From a virus (taxonomy: Duplodnaviria; Caudoviricetes): a stretch of DNA of 37,997 nucleotides. Each line of letters begins with the position of its first letter. Position 1 is the first letter of the stretch. Below, piece after piece: positions 6,782 through 16,944 of the stretch. The position numbers and the translations under genes are program-made. A model generated the notes under the pieces. The model saw only the letters and a list, made by a program, of their open reading frames with translations, was not told the DNA's origin and did no database searches. Location: IMG/VR virus record IMGVR_UViG_3300017748_000027, positions 1-37,997 of that record; one strand, 5' to 3'.

Positions 6782-7669
6782 ATGAAAAAATATAGCAAAC
6801 GAAGAGATGTTGACACTATGGTGCGCATGGTTAATAAATTAAAAAATCCAGCAGAAGAAACTGTAGCTAACTTAAGATCTATAGAACAAATGCAAGCTGA
6901 TAATGCTAAAAGTGGTGGATATATAGTTCCAGAAATTAGTTCTAATATCAGCGCATATGAACCTGATCAAGTTAAAGATGTTAAAAAGAAAGACAAGTCA
7001 TTAACTGATGAGCAAAGAACAACATTAGAAGGAGCTATAGAAACAGGTGATAAAAAAGCTATTAGAAAATCTGGAGCTGATGGTAAATACAAAAGAGCAG
7101 CTAAGCAAGATTTAAAAGCAAAACAAAAGCAAGATATAGATAAAGCTTCTGAGACTTTAAAGCTTACAGGAGAAACGACTAGATTAAATCCTACTGCTAA
7201 AAAAAATGATACCATAGTTGCTAGAATTTTTGGTAAAAGAAAAGCTAGAAAAGAAGAAGAAACTAGACAACAAGTAGCCGCAGCACTAGACAATAATTTA
7301 CAAGGAGTTAGCGTTTCTGGTGTAGAAGATCCAGAGCGAGATAGTGAAGGTTATTACATTGGGAAATATCCAGTGAGTGGTGAATTCCAAAGACAAAATC
7401 TTATATATGAAGATGAAAATCCTGAACTAACAGAATCTGACGAATCTGATATAGAATTTGGACGTGATGGTGAAGGAGGCTATGAAAAGTATGATGAGGA
7501 TTTAAAAATCAGCGATAGTGGATATGAATATATGGAAAAGACTATTAATCCAGATTTTAAAGTGGCAGCAAATGCATTGTTAGCTGAAAAAAGAGCAGCT
7601 GCTCTTAAAAACCTAGGTAGAGAAAAACCTATGTATACAGGATCTAGAGGACCAAGAAAAATTAGATGA
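6782..7669 (+). CDS. Highly charged hypothetical protein (possible internal virion protein)
   Basis: 295 aa; basic N-half, acidic C-half; ATGA overlap with amidase. Confidence 0.7.
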   Translation: MKKYSKRRDVDTMVRMVNKLKNPAEETVANLRSIEQMQADNAKSGGYIVPEISSNISAYEPDQVKDVKKKDKSLTDEQRTTLEGAIETGDKKAIRKSGADGKYKRAAKQDLKAKQKQDIDKASETLKLTGETTRLNPTAKKNDTIVARIFGKRKARKEEETRQQVAAALDNNLQGVSVSGVEDPERDSEGYYIGKYPVSGEFQRQNLIYEDENPELTESDESDIEFGRDGEGGYEKYDEDLKISDSGYEYMEKTINPDFKVAANALLAEKRAAALKNLGREKPMYTGSRGPRKIR

Positions 7670-8079
7670 GAAATATTAAAGAAATAATTATTCACTGTTC
7701 AGCTACAAGAGAAGGCCAAGATATAAGTGTAGACACAATAAGAAAGTGGCACGTTGAAGGTCGTGGCTGGTCAGACATAGGCTATCATTTTTACATTGAC
7801 ATAAATGGAAATATACAAAAAGGTAGAGATATAGCTAAAATCGGGGCTCATTGTTCAGGGCATAATCGTAATTCTATCGGTTTATGTTATTGTGGTGGCG
7901 TTGAGGAAGACGGTAAGACCCCGAAAGATACTAGAACACTAGAACAAAAAGAAGGTTTGCTACATGTGCTTAAAACATTAAGAGCAATGTACCCAGACGC
8001 TACTATTTATTCACACAATGAGTTTGCTAATAAAGCATGCCCATCATTTGACGCAACTAATGAGTACAAAAATCTCTGA
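7666..8079 (+). CDS. Endolysin, N-acetylmuramoyl-L-alanine amidase (Amidase_2, T7 lysozyme-like)
   Basis: IIIHCSAT, DIGYHF, GAHC.GHN..SIGLCYCGG, H...KACPSF zinc-ligand motifs. Confidence 0.95.
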   Translation: MRNIKEIIIHCSATREGQDISVDTIRKWHVEGRGWSDIGYHFYIDINGNIQKGRDIAKIGAHCSGHNRNSIGLCYCGGVEEDGKTPKDTRTLEQKEGLLHVLKTLRAMYPDATIYSHNEFANKACPSFDATNEYKNL

Positions 8080-8473
8080 GAACACTAATATACAACTTGA
8101 CTTAAAAACTGTAGTAGCAATAATAATGGTTACAGCCTCTTTCGTAGGTATGTATTACACATTGCAAGCAGATATTGAAGAAGCTAGAAAACTACCGCCT
8201 ATAGAAGTTACTCGCCTAGAGTACGAGCTAAAAGAAACGTGGAACGAGAAGATGATAATACAGTTAAAAGATCAAGTAGATATGCTTGAACAAACTCAAG
8301 ATATATTAAAACAAGAAATTAGTATAACTGCTAGTATGATTAAAGACGGTACAGAAGCTGATGGTAAATTAGAAGAGCTTAACAGGCAGCTAGAAGAATT
8401 ACAAAATAAAAAACCTAGTACTAGAGTTATAGTTAAAGAAGTTAAGGTCGATAAAAAAGGAAGAAAATTATAA
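8060..8473 (+). CDS. Single-pass membrane coiled-coil protein, candidate inner-membrane spanin
   Basis: Likely start ATG 8060 (MSTKISEN) rather than 8018; TM segment VVAIIMVTASFVGMYYTL then coiled coil; overlaps endolysin end. Confidence 0.55.
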   Translation: MSTKISENTNIQLDLKTVVAIIMVTASFVGMYYTLQADIEEARKLPPIEVTRLEYELKETWNEKMIIQLKDQVDMLEQTQDILKQEISITASMIKDGTEADGKLEELNRQLEELQNKKPSTRVIVKEVKVDKKGRKL

Positions 8474-8476
8474 GTC

Positions 8477-8776
8477 ATGACCAGGAAGAATAAAGAAAAA
8501 AAAGTTAAACATAAGAAGCTAAAAGAAGTAGTACAACAACTTAAAGGAGCTGTAGTAGCTCATGGTAAACAAGCAGATATTGTCGAAGAGCATATAGAAG
8601 ATATGGAAGGTGGTAGCATGGCTACTAAAATTAAAAGAACTAAAATATCTGGTCCTTGTAAAGCCGCTGCTAAAAAGAAATTTAAAGTATGGCCTAGCGC
8701 TTATGCCAGTGGCTGGGGTGTAAGATGCACTAGAGCTGGAGGGCCTAGCAAGATGGGAAGATCAAAGAAAAAATAA
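8477..8776 (+). CDS. Small Lys-rich protein with CK..AK.KFKVWPSAYASG motif
   Basis: 99 aa; two apparent modules joined at GSMATK; motif recalled from small marine-phage proteins. Confidence 0.75.
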   Translation: MTRKNKEKKVKHKKLKEVVQQLKGAVVAHGKQADIVEEHIEDMEGGSMATKIKRTKISGPCKAAAKKKFKVWPSAYASGWGVRCTRAGGPSKMGRSKKK

Positions 8777-8778
8777 CA

Positions 8779-9027
8779 ATGGCAAAGAAAAAACCTGAAT
8801 GGAAAGACAGCGAATATGCAGATGCTAAAGGTAAGTTTAAAGAACTGTCTTGTGGTGATTTAGCCAGTTGGTTAATTAAATCTAGAAAAGGTAATAAAAA
8901 AGCTATTGTTGGCAGCTTAAATCAACAAATAGTTTTTAATAGGAAAAAAAATCCTAGTTATGCTAAAAAAATGAAATGTGCTAGAAACGCAGCAATGAAG
9001 AAATTAGGCAATGACAAGAAAGATTAA
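8779..9027 (+). CDS. Small Lys-rich hypothetical protein
   Basis: 82 aa, basic, tightly packed with neighbours. Confidence 0.75.
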   Translation: MAKKKPEWKDSEYADAKGKFKELSCGDLASWLIKSRKGNKKAIVGSLNQQIVFNRKKNPSYAKKMKCARNAAMKKLGNDKKD

Positions 9028-9280
9028 AGGTGGTGGCACCAAGAAAGTCTGTCTACCTGCTAGTAAGGTAAGATCAATGAGCAAAGCTGAAAGAGATGCT
9101 GTTGTTAGAGCCAAGCGTAAAGCCGCATCATCAGGAGAATATAAAAGGTCAAGTAAGTCTAATGTTAAAGGAGCTCGTAAAAAAGGTGCTACGCTGAGAG
9201 ATTGGTTTCAAAAAGAAAACTGGATTAATGTCGCTACAGGCGAACCCTGTGGCGCCTCATCTAAAAAGAAAAAGAAGTAA
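9011..9280 (+). CDS. Small Lys/Arg-rich protein with LRDWFQKENWINV motif
   Basis: 89 aa, very basic; TAATG coupling to next gene. Confidence 0.75.
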   Translation: MTRKIKGGGTKKVCLPASKVRSMSKAERDAVVRAKRKAASSGEYKRSSKSNVKGARKKGATLRDWFQKENWINVATGEPCGASSKKKKK

Positions 9281-9540
9281 TGGCTGTAGATAAAAAAACT
9301 TTAAAGTGTAATAAACCTAAAAGAACTAGTGGTCACAAGACTAAGTCTCATATAGTAAAAGCTTGCAGCGGAGGTAAAGAAAAAATTATAAGATTTGGTC
9401 AACAAGGTGTTTCTACTGCTGGGAAAAAAACAGATTCTAAGTCTAAAGCAAGAAGAAAATCTTTTAAAGCAAGACACGCTAAAAATATAGCTAAAGGTAA
9501 AATGTCAGCTGCTTATTGGGCAGATAAAGTTAAATGGTAA
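9280..9540 (+). CDS. Small basic protein (KIIRFGQQG...RRKSFKARH...SAAYW family)
   Basis: 86 aa; motif recalled from small basic viral proteins; TAATG couplings on both sides. Confidence 0.8.
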   Translation: MAVDKKTLKCNKPKRTSGHKTKSHIVKACSGGKEKIIRFGQQGVSTAGKKTDSKSKARRKSFKARHAKNIAKGKMSAAYWADKVKW

Positions 9541-9707
9541 TGAAAGATAAAGGACTTGGCGATACTATAGAAAGATTTACAACTGCTACAGGTATAAAGC
9601 GTATAGCTGATATGATACCAGGTGGTTGTGGTTGTGATGATAGAAAGGATTGGTTTAATAAAAACTTTCCTTACAATAATAAAAACAATAGAGTAAAATA
9701 CGATTAA
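9540..9707 (+). CDS. Small CGC-motif protein, 55 aa (not in ORF track)
   Basis: MKDKGLGDTIERFTTATGIKRIADMIPGGCGCDDRKDWFNKNFPY...; TAATG overlaps at both ends. Confidence 0.8.
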   Translation: MKDKGLGDTIERFTTATGIKRIADMIPGGCGCDDRKDWFNKNFPYNNKNNRVKYD

Positions 9708-10069
9708 TGGCTTTTAAAATGAGATCACCCTATGTTGTAGATAACACGCCTGTGTATCACAAAGACGAACCGCCTAATATTATGGGTAGGGCTCATAAAA
9801 ATGGAGCTATAACAATAGACTTAGATATTCAAGTTGGTAGTAAAGAGTATGACAAAGTGAGAACTCACGAAGATGTACATGTTGATCAGTTTGAAAAATT
9901 TGAAAAAACTAATGGTAAACGAGGTTTAAATTATACTGCAGATACTGTTACTTGGAACGGGGAAGTTTACCCTAGAAAAAATGGAAAAATAAAATTCAAT
10001 GGAAAATGGATGATCGATGGTCACCCAGATTTTCCTTGGGAAAAAGAAGCATATAAAAAAGAAAAATAA
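9707..10069 (+). CDS. Small zincin-like putative metallopeptidase
   Basis: 120 aa; HEDVH (HExxH) with downstream PWEKEAY; N-terminus MAFKMR. Confidence 0.65.
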   Translation: MAFKMRSPYVVDNTPVYHKDEPPNIMGRAHKNGAITIDLDIQVGSKEYDKVRTHEDVHVDQFEKFEKTNGKRGLNYTADTVTWNGEVYPRKNGKIKFNGKWMIDGHPDFPWEKEAYKKEK

Positions 10070-10074
10070 AAATC

Positions 10075-11238
10075 ATGCCTGGAACAATGACATATAAAAA
10101 AGAGTTTGAAGCCATAACTAAAAGGGTTGAAACTATGGCAACAAAAACTTATAAAGAAGCTTATAAGGATGCCGACAAAAGTAAATATAAAACTTTTGCA
10201 GACTTTGAGAAAGCTGCTAAAGCTTATAACACTAAAAAATACGGAACTACAGAGCCAACAAAAACTGCTAAAGAAAAAGGAGTAAGCAAAGCAGAACTTG
10301 CTAAAACTAAATCTGATAGCAAAGTTAAAATGGATCCAATAAAAGCTAAACCAATAGCACCTATTAAGCCATCAGCTCCTAAGCCTAAAACTACTATGCA
10401 GAAAGCTGAAGACGCTATTAAAGCTGGAGATGCTAAAGGCGCTAAAAAAGCTATTAAAGACTCTGACATGAAGGGTAAAGTTAAAAGAAAAGTCAAAAGA
10501 GTTGCTGGTCAAGAAGCTAGAAAAACTAAAAGAGCTTCAAATAAAACTGATAGAATTAACAATAAGATAGATAAGCTAGAAGGTAAAAAACCTGAAAACA
10601 AGGCTATGGCGTCTGATAAACCAAATGAAAGGAAAAAATTAAGAAAAGCTAAAAAACTTGTTAAAGAACGTACTGCTGATGGAAAAGTTAAAAATTATGC
10701 AGAAAACGCAGCAGTAGCATCTGATATAGCTTTAGATACTAACCCAGGATCAAGCTACTCTAAACTACTCAAATCAAGAGCTTATAAAAAGAATGAAGCA
10801 GATCAAAGCGGAAAATCTATAAGACAAATGAAAAAAGAATCAAAAGACGAAACAGCAACTAACAGATACGGTGGAGGTGAAACGCCTGCTGCTTATTTTA
10901 AGCAAAACATTAAGTATAACAACTCTGCAAAAGCTACAGCTATTAGAGTTGCTGCTGATGAAAAAGATAAAATGAACGCTAGTCCTAAAGGTAAAAAAGC
11001 TTTAGATCATGACATTAGTTCTATGATTACTAATGCTAGTATGAAAACTAACGCTATGAACTATAAAACTAATTCTATGCGTTATGGTACTATGGCTGAA
11101 AAACATCACGGTGGTATGCCTAAAATGAAAACAAATCAAGATGGTGGTGCTTATGCTGCTATTAATTCTTCTGCACCTGCAAAGCAAATTAAAAAACTAG
11201 GAAGCATAATATCTAAACACTTTAAAAGAACAAAATAA
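10075..11238 (+). CDS. Lys/Ala-rich basic protein (possible DNA-binding internal protein)
   Basis: 387 aa, histone-H1-like K/A composition. Confidence 0.7.
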   Translation: MPGTMTYKKEFEAITKRVETMATKTYKEAYKDADKSKYKTFADFEKAAKAYNTKKYGTTEPTKTAKEKGVSKAELAKTKSDSKVKMDPIKAKPIAPIKPSAPKPKTTMQKAEDAIKAGDAKGAKKAIKDSDMKGKVKRKVKRVAGQEARKTKRASNKTDRINNKIDKLEGKKPENKAMASDKPNERKKLRKAKKLVKERTADGKVKNYAENAAVASDIALDTNPGSSYSKLLKSRAYKKNEADQSGKSIRQMKKESKDETATNRYGGGETPAAYFKQNIKYNNSAKATAIRVAADEKDKMNASPKGKKALDHDISSMITNASMKTNAMNYKTNSMRYGTMAEKHHGGMPKMKTNQDGGAYAAINSSAPAKQIKKLGSIISKHFKRTK

Positions 11239-11243
11239 TTACT

Positions 11244-12077
11244 ATGGCTTTTAAATTAAAATTACAAGGAAAATCAAAAGAACTTTACGGGTCAGACAAT
11301 ACTATGGTCCGTAAAGGACTTGTTACTCCAGCTTATTTAATGGAAGGCCCGGGTGATAAAGTAAAAAAAGGTGAACCAAAAACTCAACAACAAGTTGATG
11401 ATGAAGCTACTCAAATTGCTAAAGAAAATATGAAACTTGTTTCAACAGAAACTAGAAAAGTTGAAGGTGGTACAGAGAAAGTAGAAAATTTTGAAGGAGA
11501 AGGTGAATCTACAGGCTTTAGTAAAGATCCTGCTGAAAGAGCAAAACAAAAGCAATGGATAAAAGATAATCCAGAGTTACACGCAAAACTGCTAGCTGAG
11601 AAAAAAGCAAAAGATCAAAAAATTACTTTTATTCCTGATAAAGATCCAGATGAAGAACTAAAACCAAAGCCTGATCCTAACCAAAAGGCTAGTGTTAAAG
11701 CTACAAATATCGGAACTAAGCTTACTACACAAGAAGTTGATAAAGGTGATCAAATACAAGGAGGTATGCAACCTGTAGAAGAAGTTTATTATGTAACAGG
11801 TTATAAAGAAGATGGAACGAGAGGTAAAATTAAGAAAACAAGAACTGTTTATAAGAAAGTAGAAAATAAGAAAGTGAAAACTGAACAGCAAAAAAGAGAC
11901 GCTACTAAAGATGAAACAGATGATAGCGTTGTAATAGGTAGCACTGGAGATGCTGATAGAATTGCAAATGTAGTAACAGATCAACTTAATCAAAAGACTG
12001 TATCTAACATGTTAGATCCTTCTGCTATAATTAAAGGATCTATGATGATTAAAAACTTAATAGGCAAAAATAAGTAA
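11244..12077 (+). CDS. Charged hypothetical protein with MAFKLK N-terminus
   Basis: 277 aa, K/E/D-rich; TAATG coupling to next gene. Confidence 0.7.
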   Translation: MAFKLKLQGKSKELYGSDNTMVRKGLVTPAYLMEGPGDKVKKGEPKTQQQVDDEATQIAKENMKLVSTETRKVEGGTEKVENFEGEGESTGFSKDPAERAKQKQWIKDNPELHAKLLAEKKAKDQKITFIPDKDPDEELKPKPDPNQKASVKATNIGTKLTTQEVDKGDQIQGGMQPVEEVYYVTGYKEDGTRGKIKKTRTVYKKVENKKVKTEQQKRDATKDETDDSVVIGSTGDADRIANVVTDQLNQKTVSNMLDPSAIIKGSMMIKNLIGKNK

Positions 12078-12529
12078 TGGCTGAAAAAAAATCATTTAGA
12101 GAAACTAAAGTAGGGGCTTTTTTAGCTAGTAAAGCTCCTAAAGTACTAGATGCTATAGGAGACATACTGCCTAACCAAGGAACTCTTGGTGTAGTAAAAA
12201 ATCTTATAACAAGTGATAATAAGATTAAGCCGGTAGATAAAGAGCAGGCTATGAAGTTAATAGAGCAAGATCTACAAGAGTTAAAAGAAGTATCTAGTAG
12301 ATGGAGAGCTGATATGAAATCAGATTCTTGGTTAAGTAAAAATACTAGACCTTTAGCTCTTATATTTTTAACAGCATCAGCCGTATTTATGATGGCTGTA
12401 GATTCTTTTCATTTACAATTTGATGTGGATGATGCTTGGATAAGCTTATTAAAAACATTACTGGTAACAGTTTATGTAGCATACTTCGGAAGTCGTGGTG
12501 CTGAAAAAATAACAAAAATAAATAATTAA
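12077..12529 (+). CDS. Holin-like protein (3TM/GTA holin family)
   Basis: DSWLSKNTRPLALIFL and terminal YFGSRGAEK flank hydrophobic helices. Confidence 0.75.
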   Translation: MAEKKSFRETKVGAFLASKAPKVLDAIGDILPNQGTLGVVKNLITSDNKIKPVDKEQAMKLIEQDLQELKEVSSRWRADMKSDSWLSKNTRPLALIFLTASAVFMMAVDSFHLQFDVDDAWISLLKTLLVTVYVAYFGSRGAEKITKINN

Positions 12530-14493: not shown

Positions 14494-14722
14494 GGCTGTA
14501 GACGAGTTAGTTAAAGTAGCAGAAGAGCAAATTATAACTAATGAAGCAGATGATTTAGCTGCTGACAGGTTAAAGAATGCCGCAGCTACTAAAAAGCTGT
14601 GCATTATGGATGCATTTGAAATATTACAACGAATAGAAGAAGAAGAAAATATTTTAAAAGGTTTAGAGAATAAAAAAGAAATTAAGCCATTTAAAGGTTT
14701 TGCAGAAGGGAGAAGTAAATGA
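14447..14722 (+). CDS. Putative terminase small subunit
   Basis: 91-aa helical protein ATGA-coupled immediately upstream of terL; positional inference. Confidence 0.5.
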   Translation: MNTKETRKNIIRAGRKAVDELVKVAEEQIITNEADDLAADRLKNAAATKKLCIMDAFEILQRIEEEENILKGLENKKEIKPFKGFAEGRSK

Positions 14723-16944
14723 TTCACGAACAAACCCTTTGGAAAGAAGTTAAAGACATTGTAAATCCTAAAATATTAGCTAAAAACAATAGGTTTAAAA
14801 AATGGGAGTATGGCTATAACTCTGATTATGATTTTATAGTAATAAGTAAAACTGGAAAAATTGGACAAGTCATTGAAATACAAAATCTCCGCATCGCTTT
14901 ACCAACAACAGATAAATCGTTTAAACGAAGCGAAAACAAAGCGCAACAACGTTGGGAAAAGTTTGAATATCCAAAAGAACTACAAAGAATAAAAACTAGA
15001 TTTGACTGGGAAGAACACTCTGTAACTTTTAAAGAAAAATGGTACGATTATATTGACAATGAATTTACTAGACGAGAGCAAGGATTTTACTTTTATAACA
15101 ATGGTACTCCTACTTACATTACTGGCACTCATTACATGTACCTGCAATGGTCAAAGATTGATGTTGGATCACCAGATTATAGAGAGTCAAACAGACTCTT
15201 CTTTATATTTTGGGAAGCGTGTAAAGCAGATAAAAGGTGTTACGGAATGTGTTACCTTAAAAACAGACGATCTGGATTCTCTTTTATGTCAAGCGCGGAA
15301 CTTGTTAACCAAGCTACAATATCTTCAGACTCAAGATTCGGTATACTTTCCAAGTCTGGAGCAGATGCCAAAAAAATGTTTACAGATAAAGTTGTACCCA
15401 TATCAGTTAACTACCCGTTCTTTTTTAAACCCATTCAAGATGGTATGGACAGGCCGAAAACTGAATTGGCATATCGTGTTCCAGCATCGAAACTTACTAG
15501 AAGAAAGCTTGAGTCTAATGAACAACTCACAGAATTAGAAGGACTTGATACAACTATTGACTGGAAAAATACAGGTGATAACTCTTACGATGGTGAAAAA
15601 CTAAAACTATTAGCTCATGATGAAAGTGGCAAATGGGAAAGACCTGATAATATATTAAACAACTGGAGAGTTACAAAAACTACGCTGCGTCTAGGATCTA
15701 GGATTGTAGGTAAATGTATGATGGGCTCAACTTCAAATGCTTTAGACAAAGGTGGAGACAATTTTAAACACTTATACTACAATTCAGACGTTAAAAAAAG
15801 AAATAAAAACGGACAAACAACTTCTGGACTCTATAGCTTGTTCATACCTATGGAGTGGAACTACGAAGGATTCATCGATACTTATGGATCACCTGTCTTC
15901 GTTACTAGGGAAAATAGAGCTAAAGGAGTTGACGGTTACGAAATTACAACAGGAGTTATTGAGCACTGGAAAAACGAAGTTGAAGGATTAAAGCACGATC
16001 AAGACAGTTTAAACGAATACTATAGGCAGTTTCCAAGATCAGAGGCTCACGCTTTTAGAGATGAAAGCAAACAAGCTCTTTTCAATATAACAAAAATATA
16101 TCAACAAATAGATTATAACGAGGAATTAAACAATAAAGCTAATATAACTCAAGGTAATTTTTCTTGGAATAATGGGATAAAAGATACTACAGTAAGTTTT
16201 ATTCCTAATCAAAATGGTAGATTCTTTGTTAGCTGGGTGCCACCTAATAATTTACAAAACAAAGTAATAATTAAAAATGGAACAAAATATCCTGGTAACG
16301 AGCACATTGGAGCTTTTGGCTGTGACAGTTACGACATTAGCGGTACTGTGGATGGTAAAGGTTCTAAAGGAGCATTACATGGATTAACTAAGTTTTCAAT
16401 GGAAGACGCTCCATTTAATCAGTTCTTTTTAGAATATATAGCAAGACCTCAAACAGCTGAGATATTTTTTGAAGATGTTTTAATGGCGCTTAATTTTTAT
16501 GCAATGCCTATACTTGCAGAGAATAATAAACCTCGTCTATTGTACTATTTAAAAAGAAGAGGATATAGAGGCTTTAGTATTAATAGGCCAGATAAACTTG
16601 CAAATAAATTGTCGGTTACAGAAAGAGAAATAGGTGGTATACCTAATTCAAGTGAAGATATTAAGCAAGCACATGCTGCTGCTATAGAAACTTACATAAA
16701 TGATAATGTAGGTAGAATAAAAGAAGGTTACGGTTCAATGTATTTTCAAAGAACTTTAGAAGACTGGGCTAAATTTAACATAAACAATAGAACAAAGTAT
16801 GATGCTACTATAAGTTCTGGTTTAGCTATAATGGCTTGTAATAAAAACAAATATAGACCTGCACCTAAAAATATTATTAAATCTTTTAATTTAGGTTTTA
16901 AAAGATATAACAACGATGGCAATATTTCTAAAATAATAAAATAA
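14719..16944 (+). CDS. terL: Terminase large subunit
   Basis: 741 aa; Walker A-like LKNRRSGFS, Walker B LLAHDESGK, motif-III-like GSTSN, nuclease GCDSYD and C-terminal YDATISSG; precedes portal. Confidence 0.93.
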   Translation: MIHEQTLWKEVKDIVNPKILAKNNRFKKWEYGYNSDYDFIVISKTGKIGQVIEIQNLRIALPTTDKSFKRSENKAQQRWEKFEYPKELQRIKTRFDWEEHSVTFKEKWYDYIDNEFTRREQGFYFYNNGTPTYITGTHYMYLQWSKIDVGSPDYRESNRLFFIFWEACKADKRCYGMCYLKNRRSGFSFMSSAELVNQATISSDSRFGILSKSGADAKKMFTDKVVPISVNYPFFFKPIQDGMDRPKTELAYRVPASKLTRRKLESNEQLTELEGLDTTIDWKNTGDNSYDGEKLKLLAHDESGKWERPDNILNNWRVTKTTLRLGSRIVGKCMMGSTSNALDKGGDNFKHLYYNSDVKKRNKNGQTTSGLYSLFIPMEWNYEGFIDTYGSPVFVTRENRAKGVDGYEITTGVIEHWKNEVEGLKHDQDSLNEYYRQFPRSEAHAFRDESKQALFNITKIYQQIDYNEELNNKANITQGNFSWNNGIKDTTVSFIPNQNGRFFVSWVPPNNLQNKVIIKNGTKYPGNEHIGAFGCDSYDISGTVDGKGSKGALHGLTKFSMEDAPFNQFFLEYIARPQTAEIFFEDVLMALNFYAMPILAENNKPRLLYYLKRRGYRGFSINRPDKLANKLSVTEREIGGIPNSSEDIKQAHAAAIETYINDNVGRIKEGYGSMYFQRTLEDWAKFNINNRTKYDATISSGLAIMACNKNKYRPAPKNIIKSFNLGFKRYNNDGNISKIIK
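15059..15538 (+). CDS. Candidate overprinted (+1 frame) exported/lipoprotein gene inside terL
   Basis: 170 stop-free codons (15026-15535); ATGs at 15059 and 15101; MVLLLTLLALITCTCNGQ start. Confidence 0.4.
   Translation: MNLLDESKDFTFITMVLLLTLLALITCTCNGQRLMLDHQIIESQTDSSLYFGKRVKQIKGVTECVTLKTDDLDSLLCQARNLLTKLQYLQTQDSVYFPSLEQMPKKCLQIKLYPYQLTTRSFLNPFKMVWTGRKLNWHIVFQHRNLLEESLSLMNNSQN

Follow-up and report, generated by a model that had tools for sequence, protein, structure and literature searches.

A hidden +1 reading frame in the terminase gene of a tailed phage as a candidate overprinted lipoprotein gene

The window analysed here is a 38-kb linear virus record (IMGVR_UViG_3300017748_000027, the whole stretch of 37,997 nucleotides) from an uncultured marine phage, which encodes GroEL/GroES, an amidase, a holin, the terminase large subunit (terL), a portal protein and structural genes. 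Its terL gene lies on the plus strand at 14719..16944, encodes 741 amino acids (phrog_6681, E=1.5e-161) and represents the ancestral, host frame for a second frame, hidden within it and shifted by +1, which runs from stop to stop over terL codons 103-273 (15026..15538, +). As an earlier, sequence-only reading had proposed, this frame is free of stops from 15026 to 15535, giving 170 codons before the first stop at 15536-15538, and the only two nested same-strand open reading frames (ORFs) of at least 60 amino acids are both in terL. The likely hidden product has 159 amino acids when started at ATG 15059, 161 from TTG 15053 and 145 from ATG 15101, the start put forward in that reading, for which the A at -3 and the quoted peptide agree with the sequence.

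The second-longest +1 run in terL has 81 codons, and in no other gene among the 40 of the window does it exceed 62 codons. Synonymous shuffling of terL, which had been suggested as the null distribution for the length of the frame, reached 170 codons in 4/20,000 trials (P=0.0002), resampling of terL from the genome codon usage did so in 1/20,000, and the best +1 frame across all 40 genes attained this length in 1/1,000 shuffles (P=0.001). When all five alternative frames are counted, the chance for the window as a whole rises to 0.21, long antisense frames being common.

The comparison with related terL genes, likewise proposed in the sequence-only reading, was based on 228 loci yielding 204 coding sequences (window included) that span codons 100-290, with 7 skipped for N or internal stops; a redundancy filter (<95% nucleotide identity) left 191, and removal of 5 annotated out-group records left 186. 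In the interval of terL codons 131-224, which was picked after the data had been seen, 130/186 homologues are without a +1 stop (hereafter open), against 0.37 expected from each gene's codon usage, and the remaining 56 closed homologues contain 207 stops versus 262 expected, i.e. near expectation. Outside this region (codons 331-741) 3651 stops were counted versus 3700 expected, with both the open and the closed group behaving as expected, and no other frame of the terL homologues has a comparable gap between observation and expectation. The identity at fourfold degenerate sites outside the region is 0.445 versus 0.394 for random pairs, which is near saturation, and shared descent therefore does not explain the open frame. 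Sequence comparison thus makes it very probable that the +1 frame is a real gene under selection. A frame-coupled codon bias accompanies it in terL, including the G+C content at third codon positions (GC3), which is 0.38 versus 0.21.

Several other causes or entry routes were considered and rejected. RNA structure as the cause of the codon shift found no shared fold, with consensus energies of 0 to -3.3, and the folding z-scores in open lineages are mild (-0.5 to -1.9). An internal promoter or terminator was represented by consensus matches at chance level only (including the -7 motif), and entry or exit by frameshifting by no slippery site conserved to the eye, with starts that compensate for each other and ends that float. 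At 15182-15200, within both frames, a T-rich run comes after a hairpin that resembles a terminator; the count of such elements is at chance level and the fold is not shared in relatives. Marine DNA and RNA contigs cover the stretch piecewise, mix relatives and cannot show expression or frame.

The start of the hidden gene floats within terL codons 109-121 (15044..15082, +), where the window has TTG 15053 and ATG 15059. Where counts refer to 129 open sequences, L189, which lacks the leader, was left out of the open set of 130. A usable ATG, TTG or GTG at codons 109-121 is present in 129/130 open homologues (89 expected) versus 19/56 closed ones (27 expected), and where a stop occupies codon 112, an ATG follows at codon 113 or 114 in 43/53 open versus 3/41 closed sequences. 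Among open sequences ATG 109 is found in 53/76 that lack the codon-112 stop versus 3/53 that have it. ATG 15101 is retained in 32/129 versus 33.4 expected, and hence does not hold as a start conserved across the family. On a leader matrix built from 928 gene starts, with which true starts have a median of 3.0 and internal ATGs one of -2.4, it nevertheless has the best score of the three candidates (1.1, the other two having -1.4 and -2.7), so the start first suggested may be used in this particular genome.

Downstream of this zone lies a selected hydrophobic core (h-region; 15110..15133, +), with Leu at codon 135 in 125/130 and at codon 137 in 127/130 open homologues. The hydropathy of codons 131-138 is 3.16 versus 1.12 expected in open lineages and 0.80 versus 1.06 expected in closed ones; as the excess is confined to open lineages, the caveat of the sequence-only reading that wobble T makes +1 frames artefactually hydrophobic does not account for the leader. 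Fourfold-site identity reaches 0.768 at codons 131-145 versus the value of 0.445 outside, and AlphaFold2 predicts a helix at residues 3-37, the only part of the product with a predicted local distance difference test score (pLDDT) of at least 70. A further caveat was that a basic n-region is missing. The family starts at codons 109-121 supply such a region, with a positive net charge in 107/128; in the window the n-region following ATG 15059 is acidic. A median of 28 residues precedes the first Cys, which fits the leader of a signal peptidase II (lipoprotein) substrate, with a basic n-region, an h-region and a Cys within about 35 residues.

The core runs into a Cys motif, L-I-T-C-T-C-N-G (15128..15151, +), with Cys at 15137 and 15143, which constitutes a candidate non-canonical lipobox; its form in the family is L-(I/T)-(T/I)-C-T-C-(S/N)-G. 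The second Cys (15143) is selected over Tyr, Ser and Phe, being present in 109/130 open homologues (18 expected) and 21/56 closed ones, and Thr or Ser stands directly before it in 118/130 open sequences. At one of the two Cys, a relaxed lipobox that we defined ourselves matches 121/129 open versus 14/56 closed homologues. With a six-frame lipoprotein filter, set after the motif had been seen, the hidden ORF is the only match in the window, and it was found in 7/8 open genome sets, with one other match. Cleavage by signal peptidase I (SPase I) before Gln had been offered as an alternative to lipidation, in line with the Q-rule described for Bacteroidetes SPase I, by which Gln follows the cleavage site (PMC5837995). 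This reading is weak, as codon 145 specifies Gln in 49/130 and Pro in 43/130, and Gln is thus not conserved. The hidden protein is probably lipidated.

The remainder of the product (15152..15535, +) is a hydrophilic tail of low constraint, predicted to be disordered and to lack a C-terminal membrane helix. In relatives it ends anywhere between terL codons 225 and 329, giving products of 112-220 amino acids with tails of 85-190. Relative to expectation, and in open lineages only, Pro is enriched 3.1-4.2-fold and Ser 2.4-2.8-fold and Leu is reduced to 0.5-0.7, with Thr and Gln also enriched and Phe and Val also depleted. Synonymous change is not slowed in the tail (35.9-39.7 parsimony changes per fourfold site versus 37.7 outside), which is selected only for hydrophilicity. 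The idea that a basic tail is selected was rejected, its charge being mostly forced by terL (net charge 4.2 versus 5.3 expected over codons 145-224; 3.1 versus 1.5 expected over codons 225-249). A second transmembrane-like segment, as at the C-terminus of u-spanins, was seen in 0/127 hidden proteins. The AlphaFold2 model has a mean pLDDT of 46.7, with the one N-terminal helix, low confidence elsewhere and no predicted beta structure, and the hidden protein has no match in Pfam, PHROG, NCBIfam or the ESM Atlas. A profile search returned 147 matches, and of the 9 inspected 8 were terL-derived and 1 was a repeat-rich chance match.

The distribution of the open state follows the relatedness of terL. 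All 58 loci at 80% identity or more are open, as are 99/189 at 70-80%; isolates are closed in the hidden frame, as are 161/166 loci at 55-69.5% identity. The out-groups being closed and no homologue being found outside terL, the hidden gene is younger than its host frame, and since the distant relatives are closed it is taken to have arisen by overprinting. In FastTree trees the open state begins at the base of one supported clade, within which many closed lineages are nested, and we read this pattern as one origin by overprinting followed by repeated loss. Five loci of the out-group identity range (L189, L203, L204, L543 and L477; terL 64-66% identical) are open over the same region without a hydrophobic leader (5/166 versus 0.3 expected).

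What bears on the function of the hidden protein is the content of the lysis region, which in the window comprises an amidase endolysin (7666..8079, +; phrog_822, Pfam Amidase_2), an overlapping gene for a protein with an N-terminal transmembrane (TM) segment and a coiled-coil-like part (8060..8473, +; recognised from its sequence, with weak family matches only) and, further on, a holin (12077..12529, +; phrog_3427, E=4.5e-20). The topology predicted for the 8060..8473 product is i-spanin-like, which would make it a candidate partner of the hidden protein. Between endolysin and holin, at 8477-11238, lie small genes very rich in Lys and Arg that are variable among relatives.

Gene content was compared in stretches of 23 genome sets (12 open, 11 closed), in which the TM-coiled-coil family occurs in 10/12 open and 5/11 closed sets; an association of gene content in the flanks with the state of the frame was rejected as confounded by clade. 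In G002, whose complete genome is closed and branches among open ones, a Tyr/Pro-rich lipoprotein gene overlaps the start of the TM-coiled-coil gene, and the slot before the latter is empty in three open genomes. This lipoprotein was found in 28 records. The terL region is covered in 24 of these, in one case from residue 158 onwards only, and each of the 24 has +1 stops; 18 of these carriers sit in the clade where 99/189 loci at 70-80% identity are open. It occurs in 0/50 open records (the longest contigs of 98 open viral loci) and in 2/40 closed records searched (of 61 closed loci), which supports the link of the hidden gene to lysis lipoproteins that the sequence-only reading had drawn in proposing a missing outer-membrane spanin. 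When carriers are mapped on a quick tree computed from terL residues 331-741, outside the overlap, 6 changes of label are required, of which well-supported branches force 4 or more. Two carriers, L709 and L713, still have the whole leader, their only stops being at 196/198, a pattern that would be expected for recent decay of the hidden gene. In the 20 loci shown, the Tyr/Pro-rich lipoprotein gene directly precedes the TM-coiled-coil gene in 13 and directly follows an M15-type endolysin in 7, three of those endolysins being confirmed. These proteins have conventional lipoboxes, and their Atlas clusters are almost all viral and without a common Pfam. The family, represented by L677:10001-10435 and its relatives, is viral; its Tyr-rich core is conserved, its tail consists largely of Pro, Asn and Thr, and its genes stand beside an endolysin, holin or TM-coiled-coil gene.

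Two other losses, L043 and L672, have instead a lipoprotein with a C-terminal TM segment (u-spanin-like) adjoining an M15 endolysin. Lipoprotein-like ORFs were seen upstream in 28/112 out-group loci having at least 2.5 kb, and a C-terminal TM-like segment is present in 28/34 stand-alone lipoprotein candidates. Such u-spanin-like lipoproteins near endolysins (L036:1378-1824, L043:395-832, L672:1130-1621, L210:4062-4544 and about 20 more out-group loci) have a lipobox, a middle rich in Thr, Val and Asp and a C-terminal TM segment; they resemble one another and known families only slightly. A strict rule of one gene or the other fails, as L036 has both kinds and most closed phages show neither; the job is therefore optional or done otherwise.

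The comparison of the sequences shows an open frame with a floating start, a hydrophobic core, a Cys motif and an unconstrained hydrophilic tail, apparently of single-clade origin and repeatedly lost, and in mutual exclusion with the Tyr/Pro-rich lipoprotein. In the model that we propose, the hidden protein would be translated from the late transcript, exported by Sec, lipidated at one of the two Cys and sorted to the outer membrane, where it would act together with the TM-coiled-coil product of the gene next to the endolysin; in relatives without the hidden frame an ordinary lysis-cassette lipoprotein likely does the same job. That the overprinted gene encodes a lipid-anchored periplasmic protein with an o-spanin-like outer-membrane job in lysis we consider about evenly balanced. 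The terL gene would serve as a convenient late-expressed host frame, and the mechanistic coupling of lysis to packaging suggested in the sequence-only reading is not needed. Its broader idea of a hidden envelope protein in terL survives in so far as there is a real hidden gene with a selected leader and Cys motif, and lapses as regards a conserved ATG 15101 and a Gln site. We further suggest, tentatively and with somewhat less than even confidence, that this is a de novo lysis lipoprotein interchangeable with an unrelated, ordinary lysis-cassette one, such that decay of the hidden gene would repeatedly have followed the gain of the ordinary one; a lipid anchor and a hydrophilic tail would be all that this equivalent of an o-spanin requires, its gene lying kilobases from that of its partner, with a second hidden gene 200 bases downstream in the same frame.

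Parallels to this model exist. Lambda Rz1 is described in the spanin survey as an unstructured, Pro-rich lipoprotein in the +1 frame (PMC6139136), and it is reported there that non-consensus lipoboxes occur in spanins, that the survey left 13% of genomes without spanins, and that the widest separation between i- and o-spanin genes was about 1 kb, pairs more than about 1 kb apart being such as could not be found (PMC6139136). The hidden gene resembles these embedded o-spanins in that it is lipoprotein-like and overlaps a different gene in its +1 frame, has a Pro-enriched unstructured tail and is missed by gene callers, and in the presence of a TM-coiled-coil protein encoded beside the endolysin. 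It differs from them in that the host frame is a terminase and not an i-spanin gene, and from lambda Rz1 in its non-canonical lipobox, its tail of 85-190 amino acids without a conserved C-terminus and its apparently de novo origin and repeated loss. With u-spanins (T1 gp11 type) and the out-group lipoproteins that combine a lipobox, a beta-rich part and a C-terminal TM segment, the hidden protein has the lipoprotein leader in common; such proteins are encoded beside the endolysin in closed relatives, and the hidden protein has neither the C-terminal TM segment nor predicted beta structure.

Small phages provide examples of membrane genes that overprint unrelated essential genes: gene E of phiX174 inside D and the single-gene lysis proteins nested in genes of single-stranded RNA (ssRNA) phages are overprinted, membrane-targeted products. 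Like these, the hidden gene is membrane-targeted, overprinted on an essential unrelated gene and restricted to a lineage. It differs from them in belonging to a double-stranded DNA tailed phage with its own holin and endolysin, and in the export leader, selected Cys and long hydrophilic tail of its product, for which no target enzyme is indicated. No report of a gene nested in terL was found in the literature searched, coverage of which was partial.

It has to be noted that a number of observations weigh against the lysis-lipoprotein model. Regarding the anchor, the first Cys (15137) is forced by Met140 of terL and occurs in closed lineages too, and the lipobox-like start claimed in the sequence-only reading, while upheld as a selected hydrophobic leader with a Cys motif, matches the canonical lipobox [LVI][ASTVI][GAS]C at either Cys in 0/129 open homologues; even the relaxed form fails in 8/129. 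Starts at codons 112-114 have predicted leader scores no better than those of internal ATGs, and low expression of the hidden gene from these starts is therefore suggested. Regarding the partnership, the hidden gene lies 6.6 kb from the TM-coiled-coil gene, compared with at most about 1 kb in the spanin survey (PMC6139136), and it is nested in terL, while an o-spanin gene is expected to lie within, overlap or adjoin that of the i-spanin. No residue of the tail is conserved, and the position of its end varies by more than 100 codons, which is a poor fit to a specific C-terminal contact with an i-spanin, and the TM-coiled-coil gene often stands beside an exported thioredoxin-fold protein instead of lysis genes. 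As to the exclusion pattern, the Fisher test (P=5e-6) ignores kinship, only 4/50 open records are 90% complete, the open sisters of carriers are mostly not searchable and most records are fragments. The open locus L036 has a u-spanin-like lipoprotein, its hidden motif having Ile before both Cys; no lysis-type lipoprotein was seen in the largest closed clade, of 69 loci (24 with at least 5 kb upstream), and 6/8 near-complete closed genomes gave no match in the six-frame lipoprotein scan. Family and Atlas searches gave no known function for the stand-alone Tyr/Pro-rich lipoprotein.

An unlikely alternative, though the best placed of those considered, is that the leader is not cleaved and serves as a signal anchor, or that SPase I cuts it, making the product an inner-membrane protein with a periplasmic tail, such as an antiholin-like timing regulator or an i-spanin-like tether. 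The non-canonical lipobox in all 129 sequences would agree with that, the hydrophobic stretch at codons 122-139 is long enough for a full helix, and small residues after the hydrophobic core are also compatible with SPase I rules. However, Lys or Arg at codon 128 in 69/129 breaks this stretch, and the 11 residues that remain as a core are typical of leaders that are cleaved. At the site proposed for SPase I, Pro occurs as often as Gln. Selection favours the second Cys over Tyr, Ser and Phe, and the genes that exclude the hidden frame encode lipoproteins with conventional lipoboxes.

The hidden protein could also be a lipoprotein with a role other than lysis, namely in superinfection exclusion or receptor masking, for which T5 Llp and Cor are models. 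Its leader is lipoprotein-like and many phages of the group are without both genes, so that the job would be optional; receptor blockers, however, need a folded specific domain, and the excluding lipoproteins are encoded among endolysin, holin and TM-coiled-coil genes. The exclusion lipoprotein suggested by the sequence-only reading is disfavoured by the lack of sequence conservation in the tail, and we regard a non-lysis role as decidedly unlikely. Still less credence is given to the proposal that translation itself matters, with ribosomes in the +1 frame tuning terL output or, by way of the nascent hydrophobic leader, holding the terL-portal mRNA at the membrane: the purging of stops and the retention of the hydrophobic leader while the tail sequence drifts are what it predicts, but it leaves unexplained the selected Cys, the hydrophilic shift over more than 100 codons and the exclusion with a stand-alone lipoprotein. 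That there is no gene, and codon bias, terL amino-acid constraint, RNA structure or shared descent holds the frame open, is hardly credible and by these comparisons already largely refuted, since against the window-wide chance over five alternative frames, codon choices some of which may avoid T runs, the mild folding z-scores and the leaderless open out-group loci stand the near-expected stops of closed lineages with similar terL proteins, the nearly saturated fourfold sites, the lack of shared RNA structure, and the frame-specific start compensation and leader selection.

The hidden gene offers a natural case of de novo gene birth inside a highly conserved essential phage gene, in which gain, length drift, decay and apparent replacement are all visible in public metagenomes. 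If its proposed role in lysis is true, it would provide one answer to the question of 'spanin-less' phages, whose lipoprotein could be concealed in late genes unrelated to it and might require little beyond an anchor and a hydrophilic tail. It also carries a warning, in that terL, a standard phylogenetic marker, bears a frame-coupled codon and GC3 bias here.

A second, shorter +1 frame under constraint occupies terL codons 343-423 (15746..15991, +; GTG 15752) as a separate feature. Over codons 343-400 it is open in 218/248 in-group loci (45.5 expected) and 47/166 out-group loci (38.4 expected), among in-group loci regardless of the state of the first frame. Synonymous change in this region is 21.8 versus 37.7 outside, and GTG at codon 345 is the commonest start; neither a hydrophobic leader nor a shared RNA fold was found for this frame.

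As for the affiliation of the window, its terL is less than 60% identical to those of Flavobacterium, Cellulophaga, Tenacibaculum and Maribacter phages (87 records), with 37-45% identity to Flavobacterium and Cellulophaga phage isolates, and is related to those of phi38:1, phi13:2 and Elemovirus; the gene order GroES-terS-terL-portal is common to the window and phi38:1-type relatives. Group 2 of the marine Flavobacteriaceae phages is described as phi38:1-related, many members having GroEL (PMC5332604). The window resembles this group in its phi38:1-related terL, GroEL/GroES and gene order, and probably belongs to it, but unlike the window the 4 isolate records and 1 annotated environmental record examined carry 5-9 stops in the hidden frame. 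About 14,000 stored stretches in IMG/VR match the pattern by estimate, and the phage group is abundant in the sea.

Two further observations concern the relatives. Open and closed genomes alike have, where the structural region ends, a recurring module (L677:8327-9553, L678:10919-11317 and homologues) that encodes an exported protein of about 395 amino acids without a family match, the TM-coiled-coil protein and a thioredoxin-fold protein that is also exported. At L555:2241-5459, L627:4449-7652 and L631:2858-6064 the terL matches extend over about 3.2 kb versus 2.2 kb, and the insertions of about 1 kb are candidate introns or inteins.

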